The notes beneath the pieces are model-generated. The model worked only from the letters and a program-made list of their open reading frames with translations. It did not search any database and was not told the DNA's origin. A stretch of DNA of 64,000 nucleotides from Ferruginibacter sp. (GTDB taxonomy: Bacteria; Bacteroidota; Bacteroidia; Chitinophagales; Chitinophagaceae): assembly GCA_047601875.1 (NCBI GenBank), contig JASGIL010000001.1, positions 3,645,294 to 3,709,293 of the forward strand, given 5' to 3'. Each line of letters starts with the position of its first letter. The stretch's first letter is position 1. Positions 1,476 to 61,640 of this stretch are shown one piece after another. Made by a program: the position numbers and the translations under genes.

Positions 1476-1575
1476 TTTGAAGATTAGCTGATTTGAAAAT
1501 TTGAAGATGTAAAGAGACTATCAAATAGTAAGTCTCCTTAATTTTCAAATCAGCAAATTTTCAAATTTTCAAATC
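1474..1575. repeat. word-hairpin family 2 (GATTTGAAAATTTGAAGAT arms) with an inner hairpin
   Basis: Left arm is gatttgaagattagctgatttgaaaatttgaagat. Right arm is attttcaaatcagcaaattttcaaattttcaaatc. Related copies occur at 10888, 12383 and 30979. Confidence 0.75.
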
Positions 1576-1581
1576 TATTTT

Positions 1582-2790: not shown

Positions 2791-2823
2791 ATTTCCATTA
2801 TACAGTTTCTCAAATTTTAATTT

Positions 2824-2896
2824 GCTCTTTGCGGCTTTGTGATCCTTTGCGTGAAACAATATTTTATTTAACGCAAAGGCGCAAAGACAAATGCAA
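2824..2896. repeat. word-hairpin (CTTTGCG / CGCAAAG words)
   Basis: cctttgcgt...acgcaaagg pair, flanked by additional ctttgcg and gcaaag words. Confidence 0.5.
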
Positions 2897-2931
2897 AAGA
2901 CGCAATGAATAATAACGAAGTATTTATTTCA

Positions 2932-2960
2932 ATAAAAAAGCTTCAAATAAATGAAGCTTT
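2932..2960 (-). terminator. Rho-independent terminator of the alpha-oxoamine synthase gene
   Basis: Hairpin aaagcttca-aataaa-tgaagcttt, followed on the minus strand by a T-run. Confidence 0.6.
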
Positions 2961-2990
2961 AAATTGATCTGTATAATATTTTATTTATAA

Positions 2991-4244: not shown

Positions 4245-4468
4245 ATCCGTTTACTATTTAATATTTGTATTGAATGTGCTGCAAAATTAAGGGTTTGAGG
4301 GCTAATTGCATAACCTTCAGTTAACATACCACTGGCATAGTTTGGTTAACTTGATTCGTCATTGCGAGGAACGAAGTAAAAGAGTTGACATCTCTATATT
4401 TAAAAGAAGATAAATTATTAATGAGAGGTGTCAACTCTTTTGCTTGCACTTATCTTTGAAGAATTAAA

Positions 4469-9689: not shown

Positions 9690-9768
9690 AAATGTAGTTT
9701 GGTTTATAAGGGATAGTAATTTAGGATAAAGCAGTTGCTTTTCAAAAAAATGGGGCTTTTAAATAAAT

Positions 9769-9852
9769 GTTCAATATTCAACGTACAATGTTCAATATTC
9801 GTCGGAATGCCGTTGAGCATTGAACATTGGATGTTGTATATTGAATATTTTG
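9769..9852. repeat. word-hairpin family 1 (TTCAATATTCAACGTACAATGTTCAATATTC arms)
   Basis: ttcaatattcaacgtacaatgttcaatattc ... cattgaacattggatgttgtatattgaatatt. Six further copies or half-copies occur in the window. Confidence 0.8.
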
Positions 9853-13812: not shown

Positions 13813-16800
13813 ATGTTGAAAAAATTACTCATCCCCCTATTTATGTTGCTGGCTTCAGCAACGTATGCCCAGCTGAATAATCAATGGATAGACTACAGTA
13901 AAACTTATTATAAGTTCAGGCTTGCAAAAGATACGCTTTGCAGGATCTCGCAGGGTACACTTGCTACTGTGGGGCTTGGAAGCGTACCTGCGGAACAGTT
14001 CCAGCTTTGGAGGAACGGTGAACAAGTGCGTTTGTACACTTCAGTTAGCGCCGGCCCGTTAGGTGGCAGTGGTTATATAGAATTCTGGGGACTTATGAAC
14101 GACGGTAAACCTGATAACCAGCTCTTCAGGCAGTCCGATTTTCAGCTTGCAGACAGGTATAGCCTGGAGAACGATACATCAAGTTATTATCTTACTGTAA
14201 ATCCTGCAGGAGGAAACCTGAGATTTACAGATGCAGCAAATCCTAACCCCGGTTCAATGACGTCTGATCCGTATTTCATGCGCAGCATTGATTATGCTTA
14301 CAGGAACCAGATAAACAGGGGAGAGGCAAGGATCATATCAGAATATATCTATTCTTCATCCTATGATCCTGCTGAAGGATGGGCAAGCAATACCATTGCC
14401 CCTTGTTGCGACCTTACACAACAAATAAATAACCTGAATGTATATACCGCCGGGCCCACAAACGGGCTATCGGTAAGGGTTAATGCCGCAGGTACAGCCA
14501 ATAATGTGAGGAACCTCAGGATAAAACTTTTCTCAAATGATATTACGCAGACACCTTATGGTTCGCCGATAGACCTGTCTCTTTTCACTTACAAAAAGGT
14601 AAACCTTACAGGTCTTCCAATCTCATTATTACAAAGCACATCATTGTTGCTGGTCAATATTGGCAATACATCTACGAATTCAAATGACAGGCTCGTTGTT
14701 GCAAGCCTTGGTGTAACCTATCCCGCAACTTTTAATTTCAATAGCCAGAAGTACTTTTCTTTTAGCCTGGCACCATCTGCTTCGGGTAATTACCTGCAGA
14801 TAGATAATTTTAATTACGGCAGCACCGCCCCGGTATTGTATGATCTTAATACAGGTGCACGTTATACAGGAGATATCAGTTCAGCACCACAGGTAAGATT
14901 TGTACTTCCTCCTTCTTCAGATCCTGAAAGAAAATTCATCCTTGTGAATGAAGAGGGATCTATGCCAATCAATTCCCTTTCACAAAAGAACTTTACAGAT
15001 TTTTCTGCTCCTGCAAACCAGGGAAATTATATCATTATCAGCAACCCTGTTTTATATAACGATGGCAGTGGTAATAATTACGTTGATCAATACAGGCAAT
15101 ACCGTAGCTCTGTAGCAGGCGGAGGGTATAATGCAAAAATTTATGATATCAATGAGTTGACAGAACAGTTTGGATTTGGCATAAAAAATCATCCCGGTGC
15201 AATAAGAGATTTTATACGTTATACAAATAACCATTTTGATCCACACCCACAATACGTATTTATTATAGGAAGGGGTATGGATTATATAAGCCAGAAACAA
15301 AACGAAGCAAACCCGCTGGCAGCACAGCTTGACCTGGTGCCTACTTTTGGCTGGCCGGCATCAGATGTTTTGCTTGCATCTTTACCGGGAACATCTTTAC
15401 CGCTGGTTCCTATCGGAAGATTGGGGGCTATTAATGGTAGTGAAGTAAGTAGTTACCTGCAAAAAATTATTGAGTATGAACAGGTGCAACAATCATCTTC
15501 TTCATCGATCGCCGACAGGGCATGGATGAAAAAGATCATGCACATCGTAGGTGGAAAAGACAGTGCAGAAAATGCAATGTTTAAGTATTATATGGAAGGT
15601 TATGAAGAGATCGCTGAAGATACACTTTGGGGTGGTAATGTTGAAACGTTTTTAAAAAATTCGACTGGTACCGTGCAGCAGGCTAGCAGTGATCGCATTG
15701 AACAATTGATCAATGGCGGACTTGGATTCATTGGTTACTTCGGTCACTCATCGGCAAATACATTTGAATTCAATCTTAGCAACCCGGATATATATACCAA
15801 TGCCGGTAAATATCCATTCTTTAATGTGAGTGGTTGTAGCGCAGGTAACTTCTTTATTTTCGATCCACTCAGGTTAAGTGGTAATTTATCATTATCAGAA
15901 AAATATGTTTTAGCACATCAACGTGGAAGTATCGGGTTCCTTGCAGATACGCACTATGGTATTCCACAGGTTCTGGATCCGTATAATACACAATTGTATA
16001 CAGCCATTTCAAGAACGATGTACGGTAATACCATCGGTAACCAGATGGTACGTACAATACAAAATTTAGGTGGTGCAGACCCTGGCCTGAACTATTATAC
16101 AAGGATACACGTAGAAGAGCTGACACTTCATGGTGACCCGGCGCTTAAAATAAATACATTTGAAAAACCGGATTATGCGATCGAGGACCAGGATGTAAGG
16201 ATCAGCCCGAATATTATAACGGTTGCGGATGCCAGTTTTTCTGTTAACATTAAAATGCACAATTTAGGACGTGCAACAAACGATTCTATCTGGGTTTCTG
16301 TAAAAAGAAAACTACCAAATGATTCAATACGTGTTTTATCTCATGAACTGATCCGTGGAATAAGGAACCTCGATTCAATTGTTCTTCCTGCTGTAACTAT
16401 TATCCCAACTTCGGATAAAGGATTGAACCAGATCATTGTTACGCTTGATGAAACCAACAGGGTTGATGAATTGTATGAAACAAACAATACCGTTACCAAA
16501 GAATTTTACATTTTTGAAGATGAGTTACGTCCTACGTTCCCATATGATTACTCTATCATCAACCAGCAAAATATTACTTATGTTGCCAATACGGCCGATC
16601 CGCTTAGCGCCGGGCAACGGCAATATGTAATGGAGATTGATACAACTGAATTATTCAACTCTCCATTTAAAAAATCCTATAACCAAACAGGCGGGGGTGG
16701 TATCGTAGAATTTACACCAACGAATATAACCTTTACCGATAGTACTGTTTATTACTGGCGTGTTGCAATGGTTCCAAGCGGATCTGCTGCTTATATCTGG

Positions 16801-18939
16801 AATGGATTTTCATTTATATACCTTCCAAATAGTTCAACTGGTTTTAACCAGTCGCATTATTACCAGCATTTAAAATCTACTTATTCAAACATTACGCTGG
16901 ATGCAGACAGGAAATTCCGTTTTAAAGAACTTCCGAGAAATTTGATTATCCGTACAGGACTCTATCCTTATTTTGCGGCCTTCGATATCAACGTTAACCT
17001 TGATGTTGAGCAATTGGAATTATATGGATGCAGGTATAGAAGTATACAGGTTTATGTTTTTGATACCACCACGCTCAGGCCATGGCGCAACTACAATGTA
17101 ACAACTCCTCAAGGACTATCGGGTAGGTTTGGTAGTTACCCCGTATGTCAAAACAGTGCTACGCCAAATGATCCATCAAGGGCATTTTTTGAATTCCCTT
17201 ATTATGATGCACCGCATAGAAAAGCTGCCATCGACTTTATAACAGATTCAATTCCCGATGGAATGTATGTTGCTATCACCAACCTTGGGTTAACGACCAA
17301 TACTTTTTTCATCAGGCATTGGAAAGACGATACACTAGCATTGGGATCGGGCCATTCATTGTATCATACCTTAAAAAATATCGGGTTTACCCAGATAGAT
17401 AGTTTTTATCACAACCTTCCCTTCCTTTATTTTTATCAGAAAGGAATGCCTGGCTATACACCAAGGCAGGTGATGGGACCAACCGATACTGTTAAGATCG
17501 ATGAAACATTTACATTAAGAACGATCAGTACAGAAGGTTCGATACAGTCTGTGAATTACGGTCCTGCACGTGCATGGACGTCTATGCATTGGCGTGGGTC
17601 GAGTGTGGATACTGATCCGCAAACGGATAGTGTAGAGGTTGAGGTCTGGGGTGTGAGGGTAAATGGTACAGCAGATTCACTTGCAACTGTAAATCCATCG
17701 CAGGATACAACACTGAACTTTGTGAATGCAACTACATATCCATACCTGCGACTGAAAATGAAGAATGCAGATAGGCTACACATTACACCACACCAGTTAA
17801 GATACCTGCGTGTAAATGCCGACCTCGTTCCGGAAGGAGCGGTAGCACCGGGCATCGTATACCAGATGAAAGATAGCGTGTTGCAGGGTGAGCCCATTGA
17901 GTTTAAACTTGCATTTAAAAATATCAGCCAGACTGCATTTGACAGTTTACTAAAAGTGAACCTGGTTGTAAAAGACAGGAATAATGTTGATCATCCATTG
18001 CCTATACCAAAACGTAAAGCATTGGTAGCAGGCGATACCCTGATCATTAGTTATACAATTGATACAAAAGATCTTCCAGGCCTTAATACACTTGCCATAG
18101 ATGTGAATCCTGCTTTTGACCAGCCTGAACAATATCATTACAACAATGTACTGTTCAAAGAATTTTATGTGAAAGAAGACCTGTTCAATCCATTGCTGGA
18201 TGTAACGTTTGATGGTATACATATTTTAAACAGGGATATCGTATCGGCAAAACCACATATACTTATTAAACTGAAAGATGAAAGCCGTTTCCTTGAATTG
18301 AAAGATACCAACTCAATAAAATTACAGGTAAGGTATCCTGACAACAGCCTGCACACTTATTACTTTGGAGATACGATGCGCTTTACACCAGCTAATTTAG
18401 CAAATGGTGAGAACAGCGCCAGCATCGACTTTAATCCAAACTTCATAACTGCTGATCAGTCGGAAGAGGGTGAAGATTATGAGTTGATCGTTACCGGTAA
18501 AGATGCGGTAGGAAATAAAGCAGGCGATCTCGATTATCATGTAATGTTCAAAGTGATCAACAAGCCGATGATCTCAAACCTTTTCAACTACCCAAATCCG
18601 TTTACAACATCAACAGCATTTGTATTTACTGTTACAGGAAGTGAAATTCCGCAAATGCGTATCCAGATATTAACGATCACCGGGAAAGTTGTAAAAGAAA
18701 TTCCAAGGAGTGAACTCGGTAATATCCATATCGGGAATAATATCACTGATTACAAATGGGACGGTACCGATATGTACGGACAAAAACTTGCAAACGGTGT
18801 TTACATTTACAGGGTGATCACTTCTTTAAACGGTAAGAAAATGGATAAATATAAAACGCTCTTTGGCACCGGATCTAATCAAAAGAATACCGATAAATTA
18901 TTTAATAAAGGATACGGAAAAATGTATTTGATGAGATAG
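13813..18939 (+). CDS. giant C25-family cysteine peptidase, PorU-like T9SS sortase candidate with a T9SS C-terminal sorting domain
   Basis: His/Cys dyad contexts are GYFGHSSANTFEF and NVSGCSAGNFF. The C-terminal domain is CTD-like: NYPNPFTTSTAFVFTV...ANGVYIYRVI. Confidence 0.7.
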   Translation: MLKKLLIPLFMLLASATYAQLNNQWIDYSKTYYKFRLAKDTLCRISQGTLATVGLGSVPAEQFQLWRNGEQVRLYTSVSAGPLGGSGYIEFWGLMNDGKPDNQLFRQSDFQLADRYSLENDTSSYYLTVNPAGGNLRFTDAANPNPGSMTSDPYFMRSIDYAYRNQINRGEARIISEYIYSSSYDPAEGWASNTIAPCCDLTQQINNLNVYTAGPTNGLSVRVNAAGTANNVRNLRIKLFSNDITQTPYGSPIDLSLFTYKKVNLTGLPISLLQSTSLLLVNIGNTSTNSNDRLVVASLGVTYPATFNFNSQKYFSFSLAPSASGNYLQIDNFNYGSTAPVLYDLNTGARYTGDISSAPQVRFVLPPSSDPERKFILVNEEGSMPINSLSQKNFTDFSAPANQGNYIIISNPVLYNDGSGNNYVDQYRQYRSSVAGGGYNAKIYDINELTEQFGFGIKNHPGAIRDFIRYTNNHFDPHPQYVFIIGRGMDYISQKQNEANPLAAQLDLVPTFGWPASDVLLASLPGTSLPLVPIGRLGAINGSEVSSYLQKIIEYEQVQQSSSSSIADRAWMKKIMHIVGGKDSAENAMFKYYMEGYEEIAEDTLWGGNVETFLKNSTGTVQQASSDRIEQLINGGLGFIGYFGHSSANTFEFNLSNPDIYTNAGKYPFFNVSGCSAGNFFIFDPLRLSGNLSLSEKYVLAHQRGSIGFLADTHYGIPQVLDPYNTQLYTAISRTMYGNTIGNQMVRTIQNLGGADPGLNYYTRIHVEELTLHGDPALKINTFEKPDYAIEDQDVRISPNIITVADASFSVNIKMHNLGRATNDSIWVSVKRKLPNDSIRVLSHELIRGIRNLDSIVLPAVTIIPTSDKGLNQIIVTLDETNRVDELYETNNTVTKEFYIFEDELRPTFPYDYSIINQQNITYVANTADPLSAGQRQYVMEIDTTELFNSPFKKSYNQTGGGGIVEFTPTNITFTDSTVYYWRVAMVPSGSAAYIWNGFSFIYLPNSSTGFNQSHYYQHLKSTYSNITLDADRKFRFKELPRNLIIRTGLYPYFAAFDINVNLDVEQLELYGCRYRSIQVYVFDTTTLRPWRNYNVTTPQGLSGRFGSYPVCQNSATPNDPSRAFFEFPYYDAPHRKAAIDFITDSIPDGMYVAITNLGLTTNTFFIRHWKDDTLALGSGHSLYHTLKNIGFTQIDSFYHNLPFLYFYQKGMPGYTPRQVMGPTDTVKIDETFTLRTISTEGSIQSVNYGPARAWTSMHWRGSSVDTDPQTDSVEVEVWGVRVNGTADSLATVNPSQDTTLNFVNATTYPYLRLKMKNADRLHITPHQLRYLRVNADLVPEGAVAPGIVYQMKDSVLQGEPIEFKLAFKNISQTAFDSLLKVNLVVKDRNNVDHPLPIPKRKALVAGDTLIISYTIDTKDLPGLNTLAIDVNPAFDQPEQYHYNNVLFKEFYVKEDLFNPLLDVTFDGIHILNRDIVSAKPHILIKLKDESRFLELKDTNSIKLQVRYPDNSLHTYYFGDTMRFTPANLANGENSASIDFNPNFITADQSEEGEDYELIVTGKDAVGNKAGDLDYHVMFKVINKPMISNLFNYPNPFTTSTAFVFTVTGSEIPQMRIQILTITGKVVKEIPRSELGNIHIGNNITDYKWDGTDMYGQKLANGVYIYRVITSLNGKKMDKYKTLFGTGSNQKNTDKLFNKGYGKMYLMR

Positions 18940-29360: not shown

Positions 29361-29427
29361 GCCGTGGTAGCTCAGGGGTAGAGCATCCCGATGATATCGG
29401 GAGGGTCGTGAGTTCGATTCTCTGGCT
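29361..29427 (+). pseudogene. degenerate tRNA-Thr-like copy with a replaced anticodon arm (would read GAT) and a 5-nt deletion in the T-stem/acceptor
   Basis: The first 25 nt and the T-arm 5' half are identical to the downstream tRNA-Thr(GGT). The 3' end reads TTCGATTCTC-TGGCT instead of TTCGATTCTCACCTATGGCT, so the T-stem and acceptor stem cannot pair. Confidence 0.6.
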
Positions 29428-29438
29428 ACAACTAATAA

Positions 29439-31258: not shown

Positions 31259-31879
31259 ATGGAAGCAACAACACCTCTGGATAACCTCACTGAGGGCAAA
31301 CCTGCAGATAAAGCGGAGAAGGAAAGCAAATGGTATGTGCTTAGGGTAGTAAGTGGTAAAGAGCGTAAAGTAAAAGAATACCTTGATAAGGATATTGTGC
31401 GTAATGGATGGGACAAGGTTATTAAGCAGATATTCCTGCCTGTAGAAAAAGTATACAAGGTTCTTAATGGAAAAAAAGTAATGCGTGAAAGGAACTTCTA
31501 TCCTGGTTATATCATGATCGAAGTTGCAGGTGATAAATTAAATGATGATATCATCCAGCACGTAAGCAATATCAGCAACGTTATGCACTTCTTAACGGAC
31601 GGTAAAGGTTCTAAAGGAAATATCATTTCTTTAAGAAAAGCTGAGGTTAATAAGATGCTTGGTAAGGTGGATGAGATGAGTGATATCGGCGGTGTAACGA
31701 TGAGTGAGCCATTTATTATTGGCGAAACGATCAAGATCATCGACGGACCATTCAATGATTTCAATGGTGTGATTGAAGAAGTGAGTGATGAAAAGAAAAA
31801 ATTAAAAGTCCAGGTAAAAATATTCGGAAGGGCTACCCCGGTAGAATTAAGTTATATGCAGGTGGAAAAACTTGCGTAA
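31259..31879 (+). CDS. nusG: transcription termination/antitermination factor NusG
   Basis: NGN domain has KWYVLRVVSGKERKV. KOW domain has GETIKIIDGPFNDFNGVIEEV. Confidence 0.95.
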   Translation: MEATTPLDNLTEGKPADKAEKESKWYVLRVVSGKERKVKEYLDKDIVRNGWDKVIKQIFLPVEKVYKVLNGKKVMRERNFYPGYIMIEVAGDKLNDDIIQHVSNISNVMHFLTDGKGSKGNIISLRKAEVNKMLGKVDEMSDIGGVTMSEPFIIGETIKIIDGPFNDFNGVIEEVSDEKKKLKVQVKIFGRATPVELSYMQVEKLA

Positions 31880-31975
31880 TCAATCAAAGTTATCAAACCA
31901 ACTGTTTCAAACCGCTCCATTTTTTAGGGCGGTTTTTTTTGTCTTTAACATCGGGAATGTTTAGCCTTAAATCTG
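31736..31975 (+). repeat. direct-repeat copy 1: intact nusG 3' end (KOW region) plus terminator
   Basis: Aligns by eye, at roughly 70-75% identity, with 36757-36985. That alignment covers atcatcga..ttcaatgatttcaatg..ttatatgcag and the terminator tttagggc(g/t)ggtttttt. Confidence 0.8.
31909..31940 (+). terminator. Rho-independent terminator after nusG
   Basis: aaaccgctcc-atttttta-gggcggtt followed by an 8-T run. Confidence 0.7.
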
Positions 31976-32279
31976 TAGTTGCCTGTTTTACCCATAAGTT
32001 TTGAGTAATTTTTTATATCAATTGATATAAAATTGGAGGTGGTAAAAGATAAAATGCTATTTTGATAAATTTTTGTAGTAACATATTGCCTGAAATTCGT
32101 TGATGAAAAAAGTCACCATAGATATAGAAGCATAAGCTAACTCACTATAGTCTCGTTTGAAAACTACAAAAAAAATAAATTTTTTCTTATGTCTCAAGTC
32201 GCGTTAAGTATCATAAGTGTAATTGGCTTGAAATGAAGTTTTATGATGAATAGTAGTATAAAATTTATCTTTTAAAAAA

Positions 32280-33044
32280 ATGAGTATGGAGTTTATAAAA
32301 GAGTGGGGAATGATAGCAGGTATCGCCGGGATGGCCATTGGTGTGTTCCTTATTTTGTTTCGGGAACTTATTGGTAAAATAATTTTTTCAACGCTAACTA
32401 AAAAACAGTCTTACGTAATTATCATACTCTTTATGGTATTAGTTTGGTCCTTTTCAATATTTTGTATAGTACAATATTATTATGGTAAGGATAAAGCTTC
32501 ACAGCAGGTAACAGTATTGGTTCATGGAGAAAATGGTAAAGATGATTTAATATTACCAACCCGGGGAAAAGTAAAATTAATTTATGGCGACGCTAATGTA
32601 TTGGAAACAATAAATGATAAAGGAGAAGCAACGTTCAAACAAATTCCCAGTCAATTCTTCAATTCAGATTTAACCGTTGAAATACTTTTTTTTGATCCAG
32701 GTGGCGAACCTTATCGTGCTGTAAAGCCAGATTCGCTTTATCATCTTAAAAAAGCCAGTTACATAGATTTAACTGTAAAACTTTACGGATTAGACATGTT
32801 AAAAGGAATTGTAACTGACTTTAAAACAGGCGACCCGATTCCGAACGTTCGTATTAGTATTCTTGGTATAGATACAATGTCCAATAATTATGGAGAATTT
32901 ACATTGTTGATCCCCCGTGAACATCAACGCAAATTCCAAACAGTTAGAGCTTTCAAAGAAGGATATGAACTATTTGAGCTTAACAATATTCCGGTACAAA
33001 CCCAAAGCGAATTCCCAATTGTAATGAAACCTAAACAGGATTAA
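32280..33044 (+). CDS. membrane-anchored protein: 2 N-terminal TM helices plus beta-sandwich (carboxypeptidase-regulatory-like) domain(s)
   Basis: TM segments are GMIAGIAGMAIGVFLILF and YVIIILFMVLVWSFSIFCIV. The C-terminal LKGIVTDFKTGDPIPNVRISILG...YGEFTLLIP is a CarboxypepD_reg-like signature. Confidence 0.5.
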   Translation: MSMEFIKEWGMIAGIAGMAIGVFLILFRELIGKIIFSTLTKKQSYVIIILFMVLVWSFSIFCIVQYYYGKDKASQQVTVLVHGENGKDDLILPTRGKVKLIYGDANVLETINDKGEATFKQIPSQFFNSDLTVEILFFDPGGEPYRAVKPDSLYHLKKASYIDLTVKLYGLDMLKGIVTDFKTGDPIPNVRISILGIDTMSNNYGEFTLLIPREHQRKFQTVRAFKEGYELFELNNIPVQTQSEFPIVMKPKQD

Positions 33045-33045
33045 A

Positions 33046-35112
33046 GTGAGGTATTATTTTGTAATATTAGGTTTAATCATTTTTAATTTTTATGCTCATT
33101 CTCAACAAGTGAAATTGTATGGGCAAATTTGTCTCCATAACAGTAAACTTAGTAAGGATAAACTTAAGTATGTAAATGGTTCATTTATTACTGCTCCTTA
33201 TTCGAAACCCTTTAAAGTTGTGGACAGTGGCAAATTTGAACTTGAGTTTGTAAACATTGCTTTGGGTACACCGATAAAAATTAACGTAGAGACCAATGGT
33301 TATGAAGTTGTGAATGATGATGATCTACGAAAAGTTATTATTGGAAGGAAGCTGCCATTGAATGTGTATTTGACTACCAAAGGGCAACTGGCATTTGCTC
33401 AAACCGAATTTTATAATATTAGTTTAAAAGCAATCTATGCAGAGAGAGACGCAAAAATCACAAAATTATCTGCAAGCGTGGCTGAAAGTAAAATTATTAT
33501 CGCTGAATTGGAGAAGAAGTTCGGACGAAAAATTGCAGATCGTTTTGAGGCTGAAAAATTATTAAATGCAAAAGTTGAAGAACTAAAAAAACGATTGCCG
33601 GAATTTGCACAGAGCATGGCTTATCAGAACCTGGACTTTGCTTCCGATATGTATGTAAAAGCGTATGAATATTTTGAAAAAGGAAACATTGAAAAAGCCA
33701 TTGAAGAATTAGATGAATCACAACTGGAAAAATCTTATCAAAATGCAAAGGAAAGTTTCATTGAAGGGGAGAGATTAGATAATTTAGGTAAAGATATAAA
33801 GGAGAAAAGCCTTTTGCAGATAGATCAGGTAATCAAAAGTCTAGAACTTAAGGCAGCATCATTTAGTTGGACTTTTAATTTTATCGGCTCAGCAACGATT
33901 TATGAAAAAATAATTGAAAAATACAGTTCTCATAATCCTGCCAGTGAAAAATTGGCTAATTATTATTTAAAAGCAGCTAAAGCCTTTTATGATGGTGGAC
34001 AGTTTGAAAAGGCTCTGAAACTTCTTCAAACAAATATTAAAATTCATGAAGAAATTCCTGAGATAGGCCACGCTGCCATAGCAAAATCCTATTCCCTGAT
34101 CGGCATTATTTATAGTATTTTAGGGCAATATGAAAAATCTTTAAAATACCAGGATACTGCGCTCAATAGTTTAAGAGAAATTTCCAATAGTAAGAGTTTG
34201 GATTTAGCACTTGTTTATTGCAATATTGGTGGTGCTTATTATTCTTTACATGAGTATGATAAAGCATTAAATTATCAAAAAAAAGATCTTAGTATACTGC
34301 AAGAACTTTTAGATAGTAATAATACAGATTTGGCTGGCTCTTATGGTAATATCGCAAACACTTACCTTGCTATGGGAAACTATGAACTGGCAATGAAATA
34401 TCAACAAAACTGTACTGAAATTTTTACCCAGGTTTTAGATTCCACACATCCTGATTTGCTTGGCTCTTACATAAATTTAGGTAATATATATAACGTTACT
34501 GGTGAGAAAGAAAAAGCACTCGCCATTTATCAGAAAGTCATCGAAAAAATAGAGCAAAGTTCAGGTCCTAAGAAACCGGACCTGGCCTTCGCTTATACAA
34601 ATGCAGGAGACATTTACTATTTATCTGGTCAATTTGAAAAGGCAATTGAGTGTTATAAACAAGGAATAAAATTTAAAGAGGTGCTTTTGCCTGGTCACTA
34701 TACTTTGGCCCATACGAATTATTCCCTGGGCCGGTGTTACTTATATTTAAAAGAGTACTCGCAGGCTATAGAGTACTTGCAGATATCAGTCAAAATTTCT
34801 CCCGTCCTAAAAGATTCTTTTTATTATAATGATATTGGTATTGCCTTTGCCAAAAGCGGGCAATTCGATAAAGCTAAATCAGCCTTTACTGAATTTGAGG
34901 ACCTTTCTAACGATAAAAGCAAGGTTTTTAAAGATTGGTGCATATACTATGCTTTGAGGGATGAGAAAAATAAAGCTCTTACAAATCTTAAAATGGCAAT
35001 AGATTTAGGATACGATGATTTAAATGTACCAACAGATGAAAGTATCGAAAATATTTTAGGAGATTCTTTGTACACCCAATTAATGAATGACTTTAAAAAT
35101 AGTACAAATTAA
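33046..35112 (+). CDS. secreted protein: signal peptide, beta-sandwich domain, long coiled coil, about 9 TPR (TPR_12-like) repeats
   Basis: GTG start lies 1 nt after the upstream stop. The signal is ILGLIIFNFYAHSQQ. Repeats follow an A..Y.N.G..Y...G.Y..A..Y pattern from about aa 300 to 680. No P-loop was seen. Confidence 0.55.
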   Translation: MRYYFVILGLIIFNFYAHSQQVKLYGQICLHNSKLSKDKLKYVNGSFITAPYSKPFKVVDSGKFELEFVNIALGTPIKINVETNGYEVVNDDDLRKVIIGRKLPLNVYLTTKGQLAFAQTEFYNISLKAIYAERDAKITKLSASVAESKIIIAELEKKFGRKIADRFEAEKLLNAKVEELKKRLPEFAQSMAYQNLDFASDMYVKAYEYFEKGNIEKAIEELDESQLEKSYQNAKESFIEGERLDNLGKDIKEKSLLQIDQVIKSLELKAASFSWTFNFIGSATIYEKIIEKYSSHNPASEKLANYYLKAAKAFYDGGQFEKALKLLQTNIKIHEEIPEIGHAAIAKSYSLIGIIYSILGQYEKSLKYQDTALNSLREISNSKSLDLALVYCNIGGAYYSLHEYDKALNYQKKDLSILQELLDSNNTDLAGSYGNIANTYLAMGNYELAMKYQQNCTEIFTQVLDSTHPDLLGSYINLGNIYNVTGEKEKALAIYQKVIEKIEQSSGPKKPDLAFAYTNAGDIYYLSGQFEKAIECYKQGIKFKEVLLPGHYTLAHTNYSLGRCYLYLKEYSQAIEYLQISVKISPVLKDSFYYNDIGIAFAKSGQFDKAKSAFTEFEDLSNDKSKVFKDWCIYYALRDEKNKALTNLKMAIDLGYDDLNVPTDESIENILGDSLYTQLMNDFKNSTN

Positions 35113-35376
35113 ATTCCTGCTAGCTTAATTGTAGGAACTCTCAAGCGGATAAATGCCCGGAACTATTATTGTAACTTTTTAAGTTTGCCAGTCTTGATGA
35201 TGTTAAGCTGTTTGGACCAATGTTAGTTTTGTTATCTAAATGTACCGGGTACGCTTACCTGTATAAGTCTATAATTATTTTTCAAACCATATCCGCCACC
35301 TGCCAATCGTTCCTTATATGCCGACCTTTATTTATATTTAGATATGCATTCATTTTTCCAAAGCTAAAACTGTAAT

Positions 35377-36732
35377 ATGAACCGCCGAAGTTTTATCAAG
35401 CATTCAACAATACTTACCGGTGGACTTGTGCTTTCAAACAGCCTTGCTGCATCCTTTCATATTTCTAAAAAGACAAGTGTAATTATTATCGGTGCCGGGT
35501 TTGCAGGTTTGGCGGCTGCCTATGCATTGAGTAAAAAGAAAATTCCTTTTGTCATCCTGGAAGCCCGGAACCGAATTGGCGGCAGGGTATTTTCATTTGA
35601 AGCGGACCCGGCAGAAAAATTAGTGATTGAACTGGGGGCCGAATGGGTGGGCAAATCGCATGAAAGGCTGATGGACCTTTGTAAGGAATTCAACCTTGAA
35701 TTACAGAACAATCAATTCGATACGCATCTTTTGTACAAGGGAAAATACAGCCCGCAAGGGCAATGGGATTATTCCGAACCCTGGAAAAAGAAATGGGATA
35801 GCATGCTAAAAACCTATAGACATTTGACCGAAGTTGATAAGAGAAAACTGGATAAATACGATTGGTGGCGATACCTTGTAAATAATGGTTGTGAAGCTTC
35901 AGATCTCGAAATAAAGGAGCTACTCGACAGCACCGATTTTGGTGAGAGTATTCGCCATGTTTCTGCCTTTGCAGCTTTGGCCGAATACGCCGAGAGCAGC
36001 AAAAAGAACGAAATGGATTATAAGATAAAGGGAGGCAATGGTAAACTTGCGGAAGCATTGGCAGATAAAGTTGGAAGGGAATTTATCAAAACCGGTTATA
36101 AAGTAGTTACGATCAATCAAACCGATAAAGTAAAAGTTGTTTGCGCCAATGGCGAAACATTTACTGCGGATAAACTGATTTGCACAGCCCCCACTTTTGC
36201 TGCGAAGAAAATAAACTGGCAGCCTGCTTTACCTGCAAATGTGATGCAGGCAATGAATGAATTGCAATATGCCCGGATCAACAAGCACCCTGTATTGTTC
36301 AATCAACGTTTTTGGAAAGATGAGTCTTTTGACATGATCACTGATACCCCGGCGCATTATATTTATCATGCTACCAAAAACCAACCCTCACAAAAAGGAG
36401 TGTTGATCTCTTATACAATTGGTGATAAAGCGGCAATGATCAGTAATCAATCGGAGGAATGGAATGGCCGTAATGTACTGGAAGCATTATCGCCGGGCTT
36501 CGGGGACGTAAAATCGTTGGTGGAAAAACAATTCAATTACTATTGGGGGCAAGATGAATTTTCAATGGGGGCATATGCTTTATATGGTGTCGGGCAATGG
36601 TTTGATGTAAGACCCATTTTACGTAAATCATTTTTACATACCCATTTTGCCGGTGAACATTTGGCCGATTGGCAGGGCTTTATGCAAGGGGCGATTGATA
36701 CCGGGGAAGAGGCGGCGGGTAAAATAAGTTAA
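35377..36732 (+). CDS. Tat-exported flavin-containing amine oxidase family protein
   Basis: Twin-arginine signal MNRRSFIKHSTILTGG...LAAS. FAD fingerprint IIIGAGFAGLAAAYAL...ILEARNRIGGRV. C-terminal FAGEH motif. Confidence 0.75.
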   Translation: MNRRSFIKHSTILTGGLVLSNSLAASFHISKKTSVIIIGAGFAGLAAAYALSKKKIPFVILEARNRIGGRVFSFEADPAEKLVIELGAEWVGKSHERLMDLCKEFNLELQNNQFDTHLLYKGKYSPQGQWDYSEPWKKKWDSMLKTYRHLTEVDKRKLDKYDWWRYLVNNGCEASDLEIKELLDSTDFGESIRHVSAFAALAEYAESSKKNEMDYKIKGGNGKLAEALADKVGREFIKTGYKVVTINQTDKVKVVCANGETFTADKLICTAPTFAAKKINWQPALPANVMQAMNELQYARINKHPVLFNQRFWKDESFDMITDTPAHYIYHATKNQPSQKGVLISYTIGDKAAMISNQSEEWNGRNVLEALSPGFGDVKSLVEKQFNYYWGQDEFSMGAYALYGVGQWFDVRPILRKSFLHTHFAGEHLADWQGFMQGAIDTGEEAAGKIS

Positions 36733-36756
36733 TGGAGCATTTGTAATAACATTAGA

Positions 36757-36985
36757 ATCATCGATAAATCGTTCAATGATTTCAATGCTGTAATCCATGT
36801 AAGAGAAAAAAAGAAAATTAAAGGTAAAGGTATCTGGCAGGGCTAATTCGGAAGAATTAATTATATGCAGCTGAAAGCTTAGTAATGTATAAATTAACTG
36901 TTAGGAGGGTGTCTCATGTTTAGGGCTGGTTTTTTGTGCTTTAATATTTCGGATTTGTATATGTTACCTTAATACCATATAAAAA
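36757..36985 (+). pseudogene. direct-repeat copy 2: decayed fragment of the nusG KOW-domain coding region plus a decayed terminator
   Basis: Translates as IIDKSFNDFNAVIHVREKKKIKGKG... versus NusG IIDGPFNDFNGVIEEVSDEKKKLKVQVK. It is followed by tttagggctggttttttgtgc, which matches the nusG terminator. Confidence 0.75.
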
Positions 36986-37027
36986 GGGAAATTATCTCAC
37001 TTGGATTGCCACCACGATACTCATATT

Positions 37028-38041
37028 TTAAGACCCGTATTTTTCATAATCTGTTAATGTGTTAGGAGGCAAAAATAGCGGCCCTTTAAAATAACAATTT
37101 CCGCCTTTTTTCTTTGCTCGAAAACATCCATGTATAGCTCTTACGATCCATTGATTCATTTGTTCGATCTGTGATTTACCATAAGAATCAAATAGAAGCT
37201 CTGCATATCCAAAACTAGCTGTTACATACAATTTTGGTGATATTATTTCCCAGTCAAATCTCATTATGCTCTCTCGAATATGTTCTATTAATCTAACAGT
37301 CATATCCTCACCGTAAAATGTTGGGCAAATTATAAATTCGTCACTATTAATATTTTTTCGCAAAGAGTCTGGAGCAGCGCTTGCGACAATCTTATTTATT
37401 TCTAACAAAATTTTATTGCCAATTTCTTTACTATATATTCGATTAATAGCGTTAAAATTATCAATATCAAAGTAAATTAAAAAAGTAATTCGTTTTTCAG
37501 AGAAATGCCTAAACATCAATTTTAATATAGTATTTGTAAAAGCTGACTTATCTACTGTTTTTACTAATTTTTTTTCAACGCCTTCCGGATCATCTAAATA
37601 ATCAAATGGTTTAAATTTTACTGATAAAGCTCCAAATTGCGATAAGCTTTTATGTAATCTTTGGACTAATGTGGAATCTAATTCATTTTTAACGTGAATT
37701 CCAAATATCCTTCGAAGACCATAAGGCACATCTTTTTGGTTTAAAGTATCTCCAACAAATAATGGAATAACTTTATGTTTAGTAGGGTTCTGCCTGTTTA
37801 ATGCAATCGCAGTACTTATTTCCTCCTTTTCGTAAAAAGAAGTTTCTGTATTTTCAGTGCTAAGAATAATTGAAATATATGATTGAGCTTGTGCTTCTGG
37901 TATTTTTACATCCCATAAATCCCCCGGCAGTAGCGATTCTGAATCTAAAAAAACCTCAAACTGTAAGTCCAAAAGATTAAACAATTGTTTGGCTAAAAGA
38001 GTATCTATTGCGGAATGTGCGATAAAAAAATGATATTTCAT
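37028..38041 (-). CDS. TIR domain fused to a divergent GGDEF-type (palm) nucleotide-cyclase-like domain (signature NSDEF)
   Basis: N-terminal HFFIAHSAIDTLLAKQL...VFLDSESLLPGDLWDVKIPEAQAQSYISIILS...SFYEKEEIS fits the TIR pattern. C-terminal FLIYFDIDNFNAINRIYSKEIGN..., NINSDEFIICP, TASFGYAE and RAKKKGGNCY align by eye to the GGDEF motifs of PleD-type cyclases. Start placed at the ATG at 38041 (MKYHFF); the ORF-track start is 38101. Confidence 0.65.
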   Translation of the reverse strand: MKYHFFIAHSAIDTLLAKQLFNLLDLQFEVFLDSESLLPGDLWDVKIPEAQAQSYISIILSTENTETSFYEKEEISTAIALNRQNPTKHKVIPLFVGDTLNQKDVPYGLRRIFGIHVKNELDSTLVQRLHKSLSQFGALSVKFKPFDYLDDPEGVEKKLVKTVDKSAFTNTILKLMFRHFSEKRITFLIYFDIDNFNAINRIYSKEIGNKILLEINKIVASAAPDSLRKNINSDEFIICPTFYGEDMTVRLIEHIRESIMRFDWEIISPKLYVTASFGYAELLFDSYGKSQIEQMNQWIVRAIHGCFRAKKKGGNCYFKGPLFLPPNTLTDYEKYGS

Positions 38042-38569
38042 ACAAAATGCGATTTTGTAATTATGTCTTTTACAAAGATTTGCGAAATCCCTAAAATACA
38101 ATTTAAATTTCTGTAATGTTCAAAAATTAAATGATTAGGGGGATATCTTAACTAAGATGCAAACTTTTCCAAATCGAGGAAAATGTGACTACCTTAACTA
38201 GAGCCAGTGTTCAGGAGTATCGCAGGTGTCATTTAAATCTGATAGTCTGCAACTGGTTTAAGATATAATATTTCTCCTACCAAACTAAATTTTCATTAGT
38301 TGTAATATATTTTCAAAGAAGTTTCAATAGATATCTTAGTATTAAAATGTACGCTAAATCAAATTGAATCATTATGCCAAATAAAGAATTGCAGATATTG
38401 GTAGTTGAACAAAAATACTGGTTGCACATTTTTTCAAAAATGTTTTTTATGCAATAACGAGGCTTGATAACCAACAAACTGCGTTTTTCAAAAGTCTTTC
38501 GTGCAGATTTGTAGTCGACACACAAACTTAGGAATGAAAAAAATCCCCCATTTCCTCTCTCCATTCCAA

Positions 38570-38577
38570 CAAATTCC
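38570..38577 (+). promoter_or_regulatory. candidate -7 box (TActTTTG) for the rplKAJL operon
   Basis: TAnnTTTG match about 115 nt upstream of rplK. Confidence 0.3.
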
Positions 38578-38691
38578 CTTACTTTTGCCGCCCCAATTAG
38601 TTCTTTATTGAATTTGTCCCACTAAAACGGACAGGTTTGGGAGTCAGACCGTAAGATGCGGAAAGACGTTAACACCAAAAACATTTTATAA

Positions 38692-39135
38692 ATGGCAAAA
38701 GAAGTAACCGGCTTTGTCAAGCTCCAGTGTAAAGGAGGACAAGCCAACCCGGCGCCGCCAATCGGACCAGCCCTTGGTTCCAAAGGCGTGAACATCATGG
38801 AGTTCTGCAAACAATTCAATGCAAGAACACAGGATAAACCCGGAAAAGTATTACCAGTGTTGATCACTGTGTATGCAGACAAGTCTTTCGACTTCATTAT
38901 CAAAACCCCTCCAGCTGCAGTTCAGTTAATGGACGCTGCCAAGATCCAGAGCGGTAGTAAAGAACCCAATCGTGTAAAAGTTGGTAAAGTTACCTGGGCG
39001 CAGGTTGAAGAGATCGCCAAGGATAAAATGTCTGACTTAAATGCTTTCACGATGAAAAGTGCAATGAGCATGGTTGCCGGTACAGCCCGCAGCATGGGTT
39101 TAACTGTTGAAGGAAAAGCCCCATGGGATAATTAA
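38692..39135 (+). CDS. rplK: 50S ribosomal protein L11
   Basis: [35 protein letters not shown]. Confidence 0.97.
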
Positions 39136-41105: not shown

Positions 41106-41239
41106 ATACCACAATTAAGCATTTCCCATAAATACGAGGTGCAGCTTCCCCATAATAGTGCTTTTGTTGGCTTTTTATTGTGGTATTCTCTCCTTTGGCA
41201 CAACGGTACAACCTTTGTTTTCTCATAGAAAAAAGATCT

Positions 41240-42121
41240 ATGAGAAAGGCTTTAATATTTGGAACAGCATTGATAATATTTTCATCAATTCGTTCAACAG
41301 CACAAGAGGTACCCGTTATTGATAGTGTCACTACAGTTAAACAAGCTGCCAATCAACCCGTATATAAAATAAAAAAGGGAATAGATTATCCCTTAACCAT
41401 TGCAACAGCTGCGTGGGGAATATTGGGTTCACAAAAGATATATGGTCGCGATACCATTCCATCTTCAGAAATCATGGGACTTGATAGAAAGACAATTAAT
41501 AATGTAGACAGGTGGGTGAGTTACAATTATTCAAAAGCTGCGGCGAAGGTCAGCGATTATTTCTTTGTTGGAAGCATGCCTTTTCCACTGATCTTGCTTT
41601 TTGATAAAAAAATACGAAAAGATGGGCCTAAAGTAGGCGTTTTATACCTGGAAGCGATTGGGATCACAAGCGCAGTATATGTCACATCGGCCATGCTTGC
41701 TGATCGCCATCGTCCTTATTCCTACAATCCCGATGTTGATATGGGTAAACGTACCAGGGGGGGAGCAAGAAATTCTTTTTTTGCCGGTCACGTGGCGATT
41801 GTAGCAACATCCATGTTTTTTACCGCCCAGACATATATCAATTATCACCCTGAAATGAAAAATAAATGGATACTTTATACGGGTGCCGGATTAATAACTT
41901 CTACAACAGGATATCTAAGGCTTAAAGCAGGTCAACACTTTTTAACTGATGTTTTGACCGGGGCTGCAATAGGTACCCTCTCTGGTTTATTGACCCCTTA
42001 TTTCCATAAAATACGGCACTTTGAAAACGCCAGGCTAACCATATTGCCAAATTTTCAGCAGTCTTCCTCAGGAGGGTTCACTTTACTCTATAACCTGGAC
42101 AAGCATCGTAATAGCAAATAA
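41240..42121 (+). CDS. PAP2-family membrane phosphatase
   Basis: Signal MRKALIFGTALIIFSS. PAP2 motifs are ADRHRP, SFFAGH and RLKAGQHFLTD. Start set at the ATG at 41240. Confidence 0.75.
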   Translation: MRKALIFGTALIIFSSIRSTAQEVPVIDSVTTVKQAANQPVYKIKKGIDYPLTIATAAWGILGSQKIYGRDTIPSSEIMGLDRKTINNVDRWVSYNYSKAAAKVSDYFFVGSMPFPLILLFDKKIRKDGPKVGVLYLEAIGITSAVYVTSAMLADRHRPYSYNPDVDMGKRTRGGARNSFFAGHVAIVATSMFFTAQTYINYHPEMKNKWILYTGAGLITSTTGYLRLKAGQHFLTDVLTGAAIGTLSGLLTPYFHKIRHFENARLTILPNFQQSSSGGFTLLYNLDKHRNSK

Positions 42122-59904: not shown

Positions 59905-60900
59905 ATGAGTGCTACTGATTTTAATAAACTGTTTCAATCATTCACACAAATTAAAGTGGGTGTGATCGGTGATATGATGCTGGATACTTATTGGTGGGGC
60001 AGGGTAGATCGCATTTCACCTGAAGCACCTGTGCCCGTTGTTGCGGTAAGCAAAAAAGAACAACGTATTGGCGGTGCAGGCAATGTTGCATTGAATATAC
60101 AATCACTTGGTGCAACAGTTCATGCGATCAGTGTGTTGGGCGATGATGCAGATGGGGAGCAGCTTACAGATTTATTAAAAAGCAATAATATCAATACTGG
60201 TTACCTGCTTAAAAGCGGTGGTCGTATTACCACGAACAAGATTCGCATCATAAGTCGCAACCAGCACATGATGCGGCTTGATGCAGAGATTACCAAAGAA
60301 CTTGCAACAACAGAAGAAGAAAAACTGGTAGCATGTTTTGAAGAATATATAAAGAAAGAAAAACCACAGATCGTAATACTGGAAGATTATAACAAAGGTG
60401 TACTTACACCTGCGGTAATAGAAAAGGTAATTTCTCTTTGTAAGGCCAATAATATTTTGACAGCAGTAGATCCAAAGCGAAAGAATTTTTTTGCTTATCG
60501 CTTTGCAGATATTTTTAAACCAAATCTTCATGAGGCGAAGGAAGGGTTGAATATCATCAGTGATGAAGTAACAGGTGAACTGCTTTCCAATATTCACGCA
60601 GCACTGTTTGAAAAATTAAATCATCATATCTCTTTTATAACACTTTCTGAAAAAGGTGTTTTTTATCAAACCAATAATGAGAAGGCAATCATACCAACAC
60701 ATATCCGCAGCATTGCAGATGTGAGTGGTGCAGGCGATACCGTTATTGCAGTAGCATCGGTAGTGTATGCAGCAACAAAAGATATTAAGCTAATGGCCGA
60801 AATGGCAAATATTGCCGGTGGATTGGTTTGCGAAGAAGTAGGTACAGTTGCTATCGATAAGAATAAATTTCTGCTGGAATGCCAGCAACTTCTAAAATAA
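59905..60900 (+). CDS. PfkB-family sugar kinase, RfaE domain-I-like (D-glycero-beta-D-manno-heptose-7-phosphate kinase)
   Basis: VIGDMMLDTYWWGRVDRISPEAPVPVV, GGAGNVA and the C-terminal DVSGAGDTV. Confidence 0.7.
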   Translation: MSATDFNKLFQSFTQIKVGVIGDMMLDTYWWGRVDRISPEAPVPVVAVSKKEQRIGGAGNVALNIQSLGATVHAISVLGDDADGEQLTDLLKSNNINTGYLLKSGGRITTNKIRIISRNQHMMRLDAEITKELATTEEEKLVACFEEYIKKEKPQIVILEDYNKGVLTPAVIEKVISLCKANNILTAVDPKRKNFFAYRFADIFKPNLHEAKEGLNIISDEVTGELLSNIHAALFEKLNHHISFITLSEKGVFYQTNNEKAIIPTHIRSIADVSGAGDTVIAVASVVYAATKDIKLMAEMANIAGGLVCEEVGTVAIDKNKFLLECQQLLK

Positions 60901-60905
60901 AAAGT

Positions 60906-61640
60906 ATGAGACTTGTTCTTGTTCTTTTGATGTCTTCCCTTTTATTATTTTCCTGCAATCAAAATAAGGAAATTGATTTTCATAAAACTTCATGGAAACC
61001 CATTGATACAGCTGGTTATTATGAATATATAACTACTAAGATTACCGAAGATCCGGCTGTAAATAAGAAAGTAGTTTTAAAATTAGTTGGTTGGTTAAAT
61101 AATGATAGTAATAAGATAGATTCTTCTTCAATTCATGATCCTGATGCACTTGCATCCTTTTTTAAACCGGAGTTAAGCAATTATGATTTTGCAAGATCAC
61201 TAGGGGCGAATTCTACTGGTTATATTAAAATGGATTTCAAAAAATACCTGTTTGTCAGTTTCAAGAATGCAATTCATTTTACCGTTTATTTTTCAAAAGA
61301 TCACAGTTTTGAAGAGCTCCAAAAAGATTCTGCTAGACTTTCTGCAATGAAAATATTCAAAGAAATAGATATTATGTCTTCTGAAAAGGCAGCAAAGAAA
61401 TGGGAGGAGGAAAATGATACTACATGGAGAAAATTTATAACAGATAATCCATTGCCTGTATCATTGGAGTTGAAGCTAAATGATCCTTTTCTTCAGAAAA
61501 ATAAGTTTGATTCTGTAGAGCATTTATTGGAAAATGAATTACCTGGTAAAACTCAAATAATGACAGGTGGGATAAAGAGGATATTGGACAATGAGTTTTA
61601 TAAAAACGCTACACTTATTTTTAAGTTTACCATTTTCTGA
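60906..61640 (+). CDS. hypothetical lipoprotein
   Basis: Lipobox LLLFSCNQ. No recognisable domain. Start set at the ATG at 60906. Confidence 0.45.
   Translation: MRLVLVLLMSSLLLFSCNQNKEIDFHKTSWKPIDTAGYYEYITTKITEDPAVNKKVVLKLVGWLNNDSNKIDSSSIHDPDALASFFKPELSNYDFARSLGANSTGYIKMDFKKYLFVSFKNAIHFTVYFSKDHSFEELQKDSARLSAMKIFKEIDIMSSEKAAKKWEEENDTTWRKFITDNPLPVSLELKLNDPFLQKNKFDSVEHLLENELPGKTQIMTGGIKRILDNEFYKNATLIFKFTIF

Follow-up and report, generated by a model that had tools for sequence, protein, structure and literature searches.

A TIR domain joined to a degenerate GGDEF domain in Ferruginibacter: a candidate single-gene conflict module

The window analysed here is a stretch of 64,000 nucleotides from Ferruginibacter sp. 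(assembly GCA_047601875.1, contig JASGIL010000001.1, positions 3,645,294 to 3,709,293). Between nusG and rplK it carries a gene, here called TIR-GGDEF, for a 337-residue protein in which an N-terminal TIR domain is joined to a C-terminal, diverged GGDEF (palm) domain. We tentatively read this gene, with a confidence that falls a little short of probable, as a mobile single-gene module whose TIR domain would be the output, consuming nicotinamide adenine dinucleotide (NAD+), and whose degenerate GGDEF domain would be a nucleotide-binding regulator. An earlier note on this DNA (the original prediction) had proposed that the two domains lie in one chain. Both exceed their Pfam cut-offs, and both folds are recovered by the AlphaFold and Foldseek check that it had suggested, which confirms the fusion. 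As judged from sequence searches, the protein belongs to a genuine family that is rare and has a patchy distribution over phyla.

The TIR-GGDEF protein and its family

The mechanical open reading frame (ORF) on the minus strand (37028..38101) is intact, begins with TTG and would encode 357 amino acids. With all homologues aligned, every N-terminus lies at most 17 residues ahead of the KYHFFIAHS motif, and for this reason the true start is likely the ATG at 38041, so that the protein opens with MKYHFFIAHS. An NCBI entry on a 5.97-Mb contig, "MAG: diguanylate cyclase [Ferruginibacter sp.]", has exactly the sequence of the 337-residue product; its name stems from automatic annotation. The window is accordingly chromosomal DNA of Chitinophagaceae. 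The translation contains all of the motifs that the original prediction had quoted for the two domains: FFIAHS, VFLDSESLLPGDLW, SYISIILS, SFYEKEE, DIDNFNAIN, NINSDEFIICP, TASFGYAE and RAKKKGGNCY.

The N-terminal domain matches Pfam TIR_2 (PF13676) over residues 5-118 (E = 2.3e-10; 41.5 bits against a cut-off of 28; model positions 1-109 of 122). Modelled separately with AlphaFold from an alignment of 74 sequences, it reaches a predicted local distance difference test (pLDDT) score of 93, and the top 50 PDB matches of this model in Foldseek are TIR domains without exception (50/50). The best template modelling (TM) score, 0.83, belongs to the TIR-APAZ protein of SPARTA (root-mean-square deviation, or rmsd, 2.0 Å; 24% identity), and AbTir, TcpB/BtpA, RUN1, SARM1 and one TIR-STING are among the further matches. 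A profile of the family, compared with PDB sequences, recovers the Roq1 TIR domain (7e-7), AbTIR (3e-6) and TcpB. In the Roq1 alignment the profile string AYYqrEEI pairs with STWCLEEL, which places Glu74 opposite the second Glu of WCLEEL; this we take, from plant TIR domains, to be the catalytic Glu of TIR NADases. Glu74 is invariant in the TIR-GGDEF relatives (50/50) and in the wider TIR clade (74/74), and the catalytic Glu that had been proposed for this segment does fall at the TIR active-site position. The TIR domain is apparently NAD-cleaving.

The members of this wider clade are 35-50% identical and have a PYGLR motif in common. Their C-terminal partners include FHA, HAD phosphatase, TPR, CHAT, STAND ATPase, WD40, HEAT, REC-LuxR and a second TIR domain, a range that, going by domain composition, is the usual layout of a constant effector with a variable sensor. 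Three proteins of the clade (P0086, P0113 and P0125) are tandem TIR-TIR proteins, an arrangement that fits a need for TIR-TIR contacts.

Residues 165-315 match the Pfam GGDEF model (PF00990; E = 3.4e-9; 37.1 bits against a cut-off of 23.8) over nearly its whole length (positions 12-160 of 161), and the NCBIfam GGDEF model TIGR00254 is likewise exceeded (40.8 bits against 37.4). In Foldseek the C-terminal half fits the structure of an active GGEEF domain, 6eib, with a TM-score of 0.87 and an rmsd of 2.1 Å, and among PDB sequences the family profile finds DosC (2.8e-19) and PleD (4e-16). The full-length AlphaFold model, built from seven sequences, has a mean pLDDT of 76, with residues 137-163 scoring below 50 and disordered. 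Its best whole-chain Foldseek matches are the REC-GGDEF cyclases PleD (1.3e-12), WspR and DgcR, and they span both domains.

The active-site signature of this copy is altered. Where GG[D/E]EF is expected it reads NSDEF, which phmmer aligns with the GGEEF of PDB entry 3ign; both glycines are gone and DEF is retained. Gly208-Asn209, in the string IGN, aligns with the canonical GD position, or with GS in the Hypr enzyme 6d9m. The claim that the two glycines and the Asp of GD had been replaced while DEF was kept is thus upheld, Asn209 being the substitute for the Asp. The metal-binding acidic residues (D192, D234 and E235) and the phosphate-binding Lys (K310) are retained, as are D194, N200 and every residue that is invariant in the family. 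Two residues before NSDEF stands N230 instead of Arg; K310 is followed by a Lys/Arg, and GGN (Gly314) occurs where GRN is expected. Via the 3ign alignment we take N200, N209, N230 and Gly314 to correspond to N335, D344, R366 and R446 of PleD. Since the position of the RxxD I-site reads APDS, binding of cyclic di-GMP (c-di-GMP) of the product-inhibition type at this site is unlikely. With NSDEF, Asn209, the loss of the Arg before the motif, GGN and no RxxD I-site, this copy ranks with the most degenerate members of its family, and the automatic label "diguanylate cyclase" is probably misleading for it, a point of consequence for genome annotation.

The family was collected by word-indexed searches of 5.8 billion proteins and by an exhaustive hmmsearch of 1.84 billion representatives at 50% identity. 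The former returned 12 full-length relatives with TIR_2 and GGDEF domains, 31-48% identical to this protein and all singletons; the latter returned about 50 full-length members together with fragments. Among 185,579 species genomes there are two full-length copies, one in a Bacteroidetes metagenome-assembled genome (MAG) and one in a Desulfomonilaceae MAG. JGI metagenomes supplied four more full-length loci, one of them a duplicate of the ENA-derived locus L010.

An alignment of 50 full-length members reveals which positions are constrained. D192 and D234 are present in all 50, D194 in 49, K310 in 48 and N200 in 47, and a family-specific Trp (W264) is invariant (50/50). The five signature positions retain G, G, D, E and F in 30, 10, 50, 37 and 44 members, respectively. 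The second Gly is therefore lost from 40 members, and the Glu at position 4 is replaced in 13 by Q, S, T, A or D. At the guanine-recognition position 36 members have Asp and 12 have Asn. A canonical GGDEF survives in four members (P0013, P0095, P0124 and P0184) and GEDEF is found in five; other variants are GKDEF, GADSF, SGDQF and RQDAW. Mean pairwise identity is 34% in the TIR domain, 28% in the GGDEF domain, 28% in the tail and 10% in the linker. The tail, which the Pfam GGDEF model no longer reaches, has conserved positions of its own (P321 in 43/50, L324 in 40/50, a terminal Ser in 38/50). Because Glu74 and the binding residues are fixed while the second Gly and the fourth Glu decay, what selection appears to maintain is catalysis by the TIR domain and, in the palm, the binding of nucleotide and metal, but not cyclase chemistry. 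From the canonical GGDEF to RQDAW, with the binding residues fixed throughout, the family also provides a natural series for the study of degenerate GGDEF function.

A search with the GGDEF part of the profile returned no TIR-GGDEF proteins among its matches; it is thus no census and is used here for the matches found, namely P0210 and P0211, followed by ordinary diguanylate cyclases at no more than 99 bits. P0210 (287 residues) has no TIR domain; hydrophobic, apparently transmembrane N-terminal segments precede a GGDEF domain of the family subtype, with a GADTF motif, the invariant Trp and the GP tail. We regard this as a hint that one effector may have been exchanged for another in front of a common regulatory domain. 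P0106 (1274 residues) has an unusual architecture of seven tandem GGDEF-like domains that match the family palm profile, again with no TIR domain.

Genomic setting of the family and of the Ferruginibacter gene

The neighbourhoods of the relatives were compared by all-against-all BLAST of the ORFs at 10 distinct homologue loci, seven of which have usable flanks. No partner gene is conserved across the 10 loci. Mobile-element or defence genes occur at six of the seven flanked loci, and two of these are bona fide defence islands (Table 1). The original prediction had asked whether homologues lie in variable or defence loci, and they do so in this raw count. At the locus of homologue P0004, AbiGi (PADLOC 5e-53) lies directly upstream of the TIR-GGDEF gene, and two IS110 transposases of identical length, Imm63 and a PLD-family protein are also present. 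The contig of the Gabija-bearing locus L010 stops where GajB would be expected. At L011 a 132-residue ORF (3456-3854) with no Pfam match ends exactly at the start of the homologue. It is unrelated to the other small upstream ORFs, of 171 residues at L009 and of 83 residues in the window, and none of the three is conserved. Searched by tblastn, the plasmids of PLSDB yielded only ordinary GGDEF-EAL matches and the INPHARED phages yielded none, so that nothing indicates carriage of the fusion by sequenced plasmids or phages.

In the window the gene order is tuf, tRNA-Trp, nusG (31259-31879), three genes, TIR-GGDEF on the minus strand, rplK (38692-39135)-rplA-rplJ-rplL, a PAP2 gene and rpoB-rpoC. 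The picture of a single gene in an otherwise uninterrupted nusG-rplK gap has to be given up, as the gap measures 6.8 kb and holds four genes, including TIR-GGDEF, and rplL-rpoB is interrupted too. Since the PAP2 gene splits rplL from rpoB, this Ferruginibacter lineage is one that tolerates insertions in the rplKAJL-rpoBC cluster. The three other genes in the gap do not recur beside the homologues of TIR-GGDEF. For the gap in close relatives, look-ups by exact sequence with L11 and EF-Tu of the window and with the fusion protein returned no record.

The gene was correctly described as standing on the strand opposite to its surroundings; from an xerC-like gene at about 27.2 kb to 53.3 kb it is the sole minus-strand gene. 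Its GC content is 30.9% and its GC content at third codon positions 21.3%, against means of 38.4% and 33.9% for the genes of the window, each about 2.1 standard deviations lower. The AT-richness noted earlier is thus genuine, but it is not unique, a gene at 60879-61640 being equally low (30.6%), and rpoB has a GC content of 41.4%, not 42-48%. The genes for the 254-residue and 688-residue proteins of the gap are AT-rich as well (33-34% GC).

No meaningful direct or inverted repeats, integrase or tRNA bound either the gene or the nusG-rplK gap, no Rfam element or terminator was found in the flanks of the gene, and the tRNAs of the window are the normal tuf-cluster set only. A defined mobile insertion, with repeats, an integrase, a tRNA or an RNA element at its borders, is accordingly not supported in the window. 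A foreign origin of the TIR-GGDEF gene is plausible. The region between it and rplK must hold the promoters of both genes; a scan for sigma-70-type sites found fewer of them there than in shuffled controls and is not informative for Bacteroidota.

Two further observations concern the window at large. In the Thr-Tyr-Gly-Thr tRNA cluster upstream of tuf, ARAGORN calls a tRNA-Ile(GAT) at 29361-29433 (+), which clears the tRNA threshold of Rfam by a narrow margin (30.7 bits against 29). A 1708-residue protein with a Peptidase_C25 (gingipain-like) domain, encoded at 13813-18939 (+), is unrelated to TIR-GGDEF.

Table 1. Features of the window and of loci that carry relatives of TIR-GGDEF. Positions are those of the window or of the locus named.
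Feature	Position	Strand	Remarks
Window: TIR-GGDEF fusion coding sequence	37028..38041	-	337 residues; stop codon 37028-37030 included
TIR domain, residues 1-138	37628..38041	-	Pfam TIR_2, AlphaFold, Foldseek, family profile
Glu74 codon, predicted TIR catalytic Glu	37820..37822	-	In S68-F-Y70-E-K-E-E74-I; Roq1 alignment, invariance
Variable linker, residues 139-164	37550..37627	-	Probably flexible; low pLDDT, low identity
Diverged GGDEF (palm) domain, residues 165-318	37088..37549	-	Pfam, family profile, Foldseek
NSDEF, residues 232-236	37334..37348	-	Replaces the GG[D/E]EF signature; sequence and 3ign alignment
Family-specific C-terminal tail, residues 319-337	37031..37087	-	Consensus GPxxLPxxxSxxxxDYxS; family conservation
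Divergent intergenic region TIR-GGDEF/rplK	38042..38691		650 bp; no Rfam family
Remainder of the nusG-rplK gap	31880..37027	+	Context only, outside the TIR-GGDEF module
254-residue protein	32280-33044	+	nusG-rplK gap; no Pfam or NCBIfam match
688-residue TPR protein	33046-35112	+	nusG-rplK gap; signal-like N-terminus; start overlaps previous stop, likely operon
Flavin amine oxidase	35377-36732	+	nusG-rplK gap; Tat signal (MNRRSFIKH...)
PAP2-family phosphatase	41180-42121	+	Between rplL and rpoB; Pfam E = 1.1e-12
L008 (homologue P0004): defence island	465-3366 and 9035-9799		SPARTA short pAgo (3.8e-183) and TIR-APAZ (5.7e-125) (PADLOC)
L010 (homologue P0014)	3138-5612		Mrr_cat protein and Gabija GajA OLD nuclease (PADLOC 5e-196), directly downstream
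L002			Tyrosine integrase and ParA
L006			Rep3, ParA, Fic and caspase-like peptidase
L009			IS4 transposase
L011	98-2608		836-residue WD40-Roc/Ras GTPase-TIR_2 protein upstream of the homologue
L024			Housekeeping-looking genes
L024: homologue split in two overlapping ORFs	4836-5961		Frameshifted pseudogene or assembly error

Regulator, cyclase or bystander

According to the reading that we favour, the TIR domain would cleave NAD+ by means of Glu74, and its activity would depend, as in other TIR enzymes, on TIR-TIR association. The GGDEF domain, with its binding residues kept (Asp192, Asp194, Asn200, Asp234 and Lys310), would be a dimerising regulator that binds a nucleotide, and occupancy by the ligand would decide whether the TIR domains assemble. 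The ligand is probably guanine-based, whether guanosine triphosphate (GTP), c-di-GMP or guanosine tetra- or pentaphosphate, (p)ppGpp. An alarmone is conceivable, because two PDB entries, 9g85 and 9g86, contain, going by their titles, PleD bound to c-di-GMP and (p)ppGpp. From the loci of the relatives we surmise a conflict module of the abortive-infection or stress type, one that would need no partner gene. NADase activity, ligand binding, coupling between the domains and a role in defence are what we infer; the domain matches, folds, residue counts and gene neighbourhoods given above are what was observed.

The GGDEF domain seems to bear a closer resemblance to a sensor or regulator, an option that the original prediction had raised in passing, because the second Gly is kept in 10 of 50 members, the fourth Glu is lost in 13, Glu74 never varies, and the site of this copy is changed as described. 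The same counts weaken the idea, put forward with it, of a palm cyclase that generates a signal, and for the Ferruginibacter protein such a role is less likely. There is precedent for regulation: the GEDEF domain of PdeA (CC3396) is a GTP-binding domain that stimulates the enzyme next to it (PMC4823724). Activity of non-canonical diguanylate cyclases is documented for first-position variants only, AGDEF and SGDEF, and the roles otherwise described for degenerate GGDEF domains are those of receptor or regulator (PMC3974145).

A working cyclase, making c-di-GMP or an altered cyclic dinucleotide, would nevertheless account for part of the evidence, with a TIR domain that serves only to oligomerise or regulate in the manner of REC in PleD, WspR and DgcR. 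TIR and REC have a flavodoxin-like fold in common, and it is precisely these REC-GGDEF regulators that the whole chain matches over both domains. Both metal-binding Asp residues, Asn200 and Lys310 with the basic residue after it are conserved; the guanine-recognition Asp persists in 36 of 50 members and the full GGDEF in four, and the NCBI name says "diguanylate cyclase". A TIR domain that acted as a scaffold, however, would not need a Glu that is invariant in 50 of 50 relatives and in 74 of 74 clade members, and the linker is disordered here, unlike the coiled-coil relay of REC-GGDEF enzymes. This copy, moreover, is altered at the positions that we map to Arg366, Asp344 and Arg446 of PleD. 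The activity of AGDEF and SGDEF enzymes speaks for a cyclase, but it has been demonstrated for substitutions at the first position only (PMC3974145), whereas this family has lost the second Gly in 40 of 50 members and the fourth Glu in 13, RQDAW and SGDQF included. We consider a working cyclase unlikely.

Very improbable, in our view, is a dual enzyme, whose TIR domain would deplete NAD+ or make an NAD-derived signal and whose palm would make a cyclic (oligo)nucleotide. Each of the two domains does have candidate catalytic residues, and the TIR protein of Thoeris and the palms of Cas10, mCpol and GGDEF proteins are signal generators in defence (PMC12657218; PMC10118264), but no receptor or effector gene for either signal is conserved alongside, the signature decays across the family although its conservation would be expected of a signal synthase, and such a fusion was not described in the literature searched. 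The protein could also be an ordinary chromosomal signalling or scaffold protein, or a decaying acquisition, its low GC content and odd position being incidental. Its neighbours in the window are ribosomal-protein genes, an amine oxidase, and TPR and PAP2 genes, with nothing related to defence; degeneracy affects about 24% of all GGDEF domains (PMC3974145), and the relative at L024 is frameshifted. This, too, is improbable, as the reading frame has stayed open at a GC content of 31%, which readily gives rise to stop codons, and retains every family-invariant residue. The distribution is patchy, from Ferruginibacter to another Bacteroidetes MAG and Desulfomonilaceae, and six of seven flanked loci hold mobile-element or defence genes.

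Several points weigh against the regulated NADase that we favour. The case is entirely computational for every member, and a conserved catalytic Glu is no proof of NADase activity. Four members keep the canonical GGDEF, and the metal ligands would be equally needed by an active nucleotidyl-transferase; AGDEF and SGDEF enzymes are active, and the authors of that work caution that each diguanylate cyclase follows its own rules (PMC3974145). With a linker as flexible and variable as this one, tight allosteric coupling is not obvious. P0210 is one sequence, and transmembrane N-termini are common in ordinary cyclases too. The defence association comes from seven flanked loci, without a matched background comparison, and within the window no defence gene lies near TIR-GGDEF, the neighbours being housekeeping genes.

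A more specific proposal, which we hold to be rather doubtful, is that of a single-protein abortive-infection or stress system in which the palm would monitor the guanine-nucleotide pool and license the assembly of an NAD+-destroying TIR domain. The cue would be GTP, (p)ppGpp or c-di-GMP, or the depletion or sequestration of the pool by a phage. In a bolder variant both the TIR and the GGDEF domain would make messengers. If true, this would be the first link between a palm domain of the c-di-GMP type and TIR immunity; and a GGDEF domain that senses guanine nucleotides would join c-di-GMP/GTP signalling to immunity by NAD+ depletion in one movable, testable gene.

Comparison with known systems

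TIR domains are the NAD-cleaving engine common to bacterial, plant and animal immunity, and it is the switches that differ between systems. A palm of the GGDEF type as the switch of a TIR domain, or as a second enzyme covalently attached to it, was not described in the literature searched. The phrase "TIR-GGDEF" and a description of the fusion were likewise not found there, though an earlier notice in Burroughs et al. 2015 (NAR) is possible. PADLOC models give weak matches to the TIR part only, with no model for the fusion, which bears out the view that this is no named system.

Likeness to ThsB of Thoeris is confined to the TIR level (PADLOC ThsB1, E = 6.8e-5 over 75 residues; NCBIfam ThcB4, E = 5e-4). 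Membership of Thoeris fails, as the ThcB4 score is 19 bits against a cut-off of 220 and no ThsA-type effector occurs near any locus. The proposed analogies with palm-domain relatives of non-canonical signature do not hold either. Panoptes has such a palm in mCpol/OptS (PMC12657218), but the present protein matches the GGDEF model over its full length, its structural neighbours are ordinary diguanylate cyclases, of which 6eib is nearest, and a two-transmembrane (2TM) effector partner is lacking. The Hypr-GGDEF enzymes keep the GGDEF motif, whereas this copy has NSDEF; Asn209 stands opposite the Ser of the Geobacter enzyme 6d9m, and the Hypr position in the family is Asn or Asp.

PleD, WspR and DgcR have the same overall order of a flavodoxin-like N-terminal domain, a helix and GGDEF. 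They differ in that the N-terminal domain here is TIR by profile and fold, not a phospho-receiver, and in that the signature, the I-site and the positions mapped to R366, D344 and R446 are changed and the linker is disordered. A further parallel is provided by the GEDEF domain of PdeA (CC3396), which looks inactive as a diguanylate cyclase, keeps its nucleotide-binding residues and lies next to another catalytic domain. By sequence the TIR-GGDEF protein has the same three attributes, a degenerate signature, retained binding residues and an adjoining catalytic domain. It differs in having TIR in the place of EAL and in its reversed domain order, in which GGDEF comes last, and the invariant Trp264 and the GPxxLP...S tail set the family apart.

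In its logic the protein resembles TIR-STING, TIR-SAVED and the TIR-APAZ of SPARTA, where an N-terminal TIR domain with a catalytic Glu is followed by a C-terminal domain that controls TIR assembly; in TIR-STING and TIR-SAVED it is assembly driven by a ligand that switches TIR on. The present protein is not a TIR effector of the CBASS type, having neither a STING or SAVED sensor nor a CD-NTase neighbour, and unlike CBASS and SPARTA loci those of TIR-GGDEF have no conserved CD-NTase or Argonaute partner. What distinguishes it from CBASS, Pycsar and SPARTA is the C-terminal domain, a GGDEF palm in place of STING, SAVED or APAZ, and on this comparison TIR-GGDEF would be a TIR effector to which a regulator of a new kind is attached.

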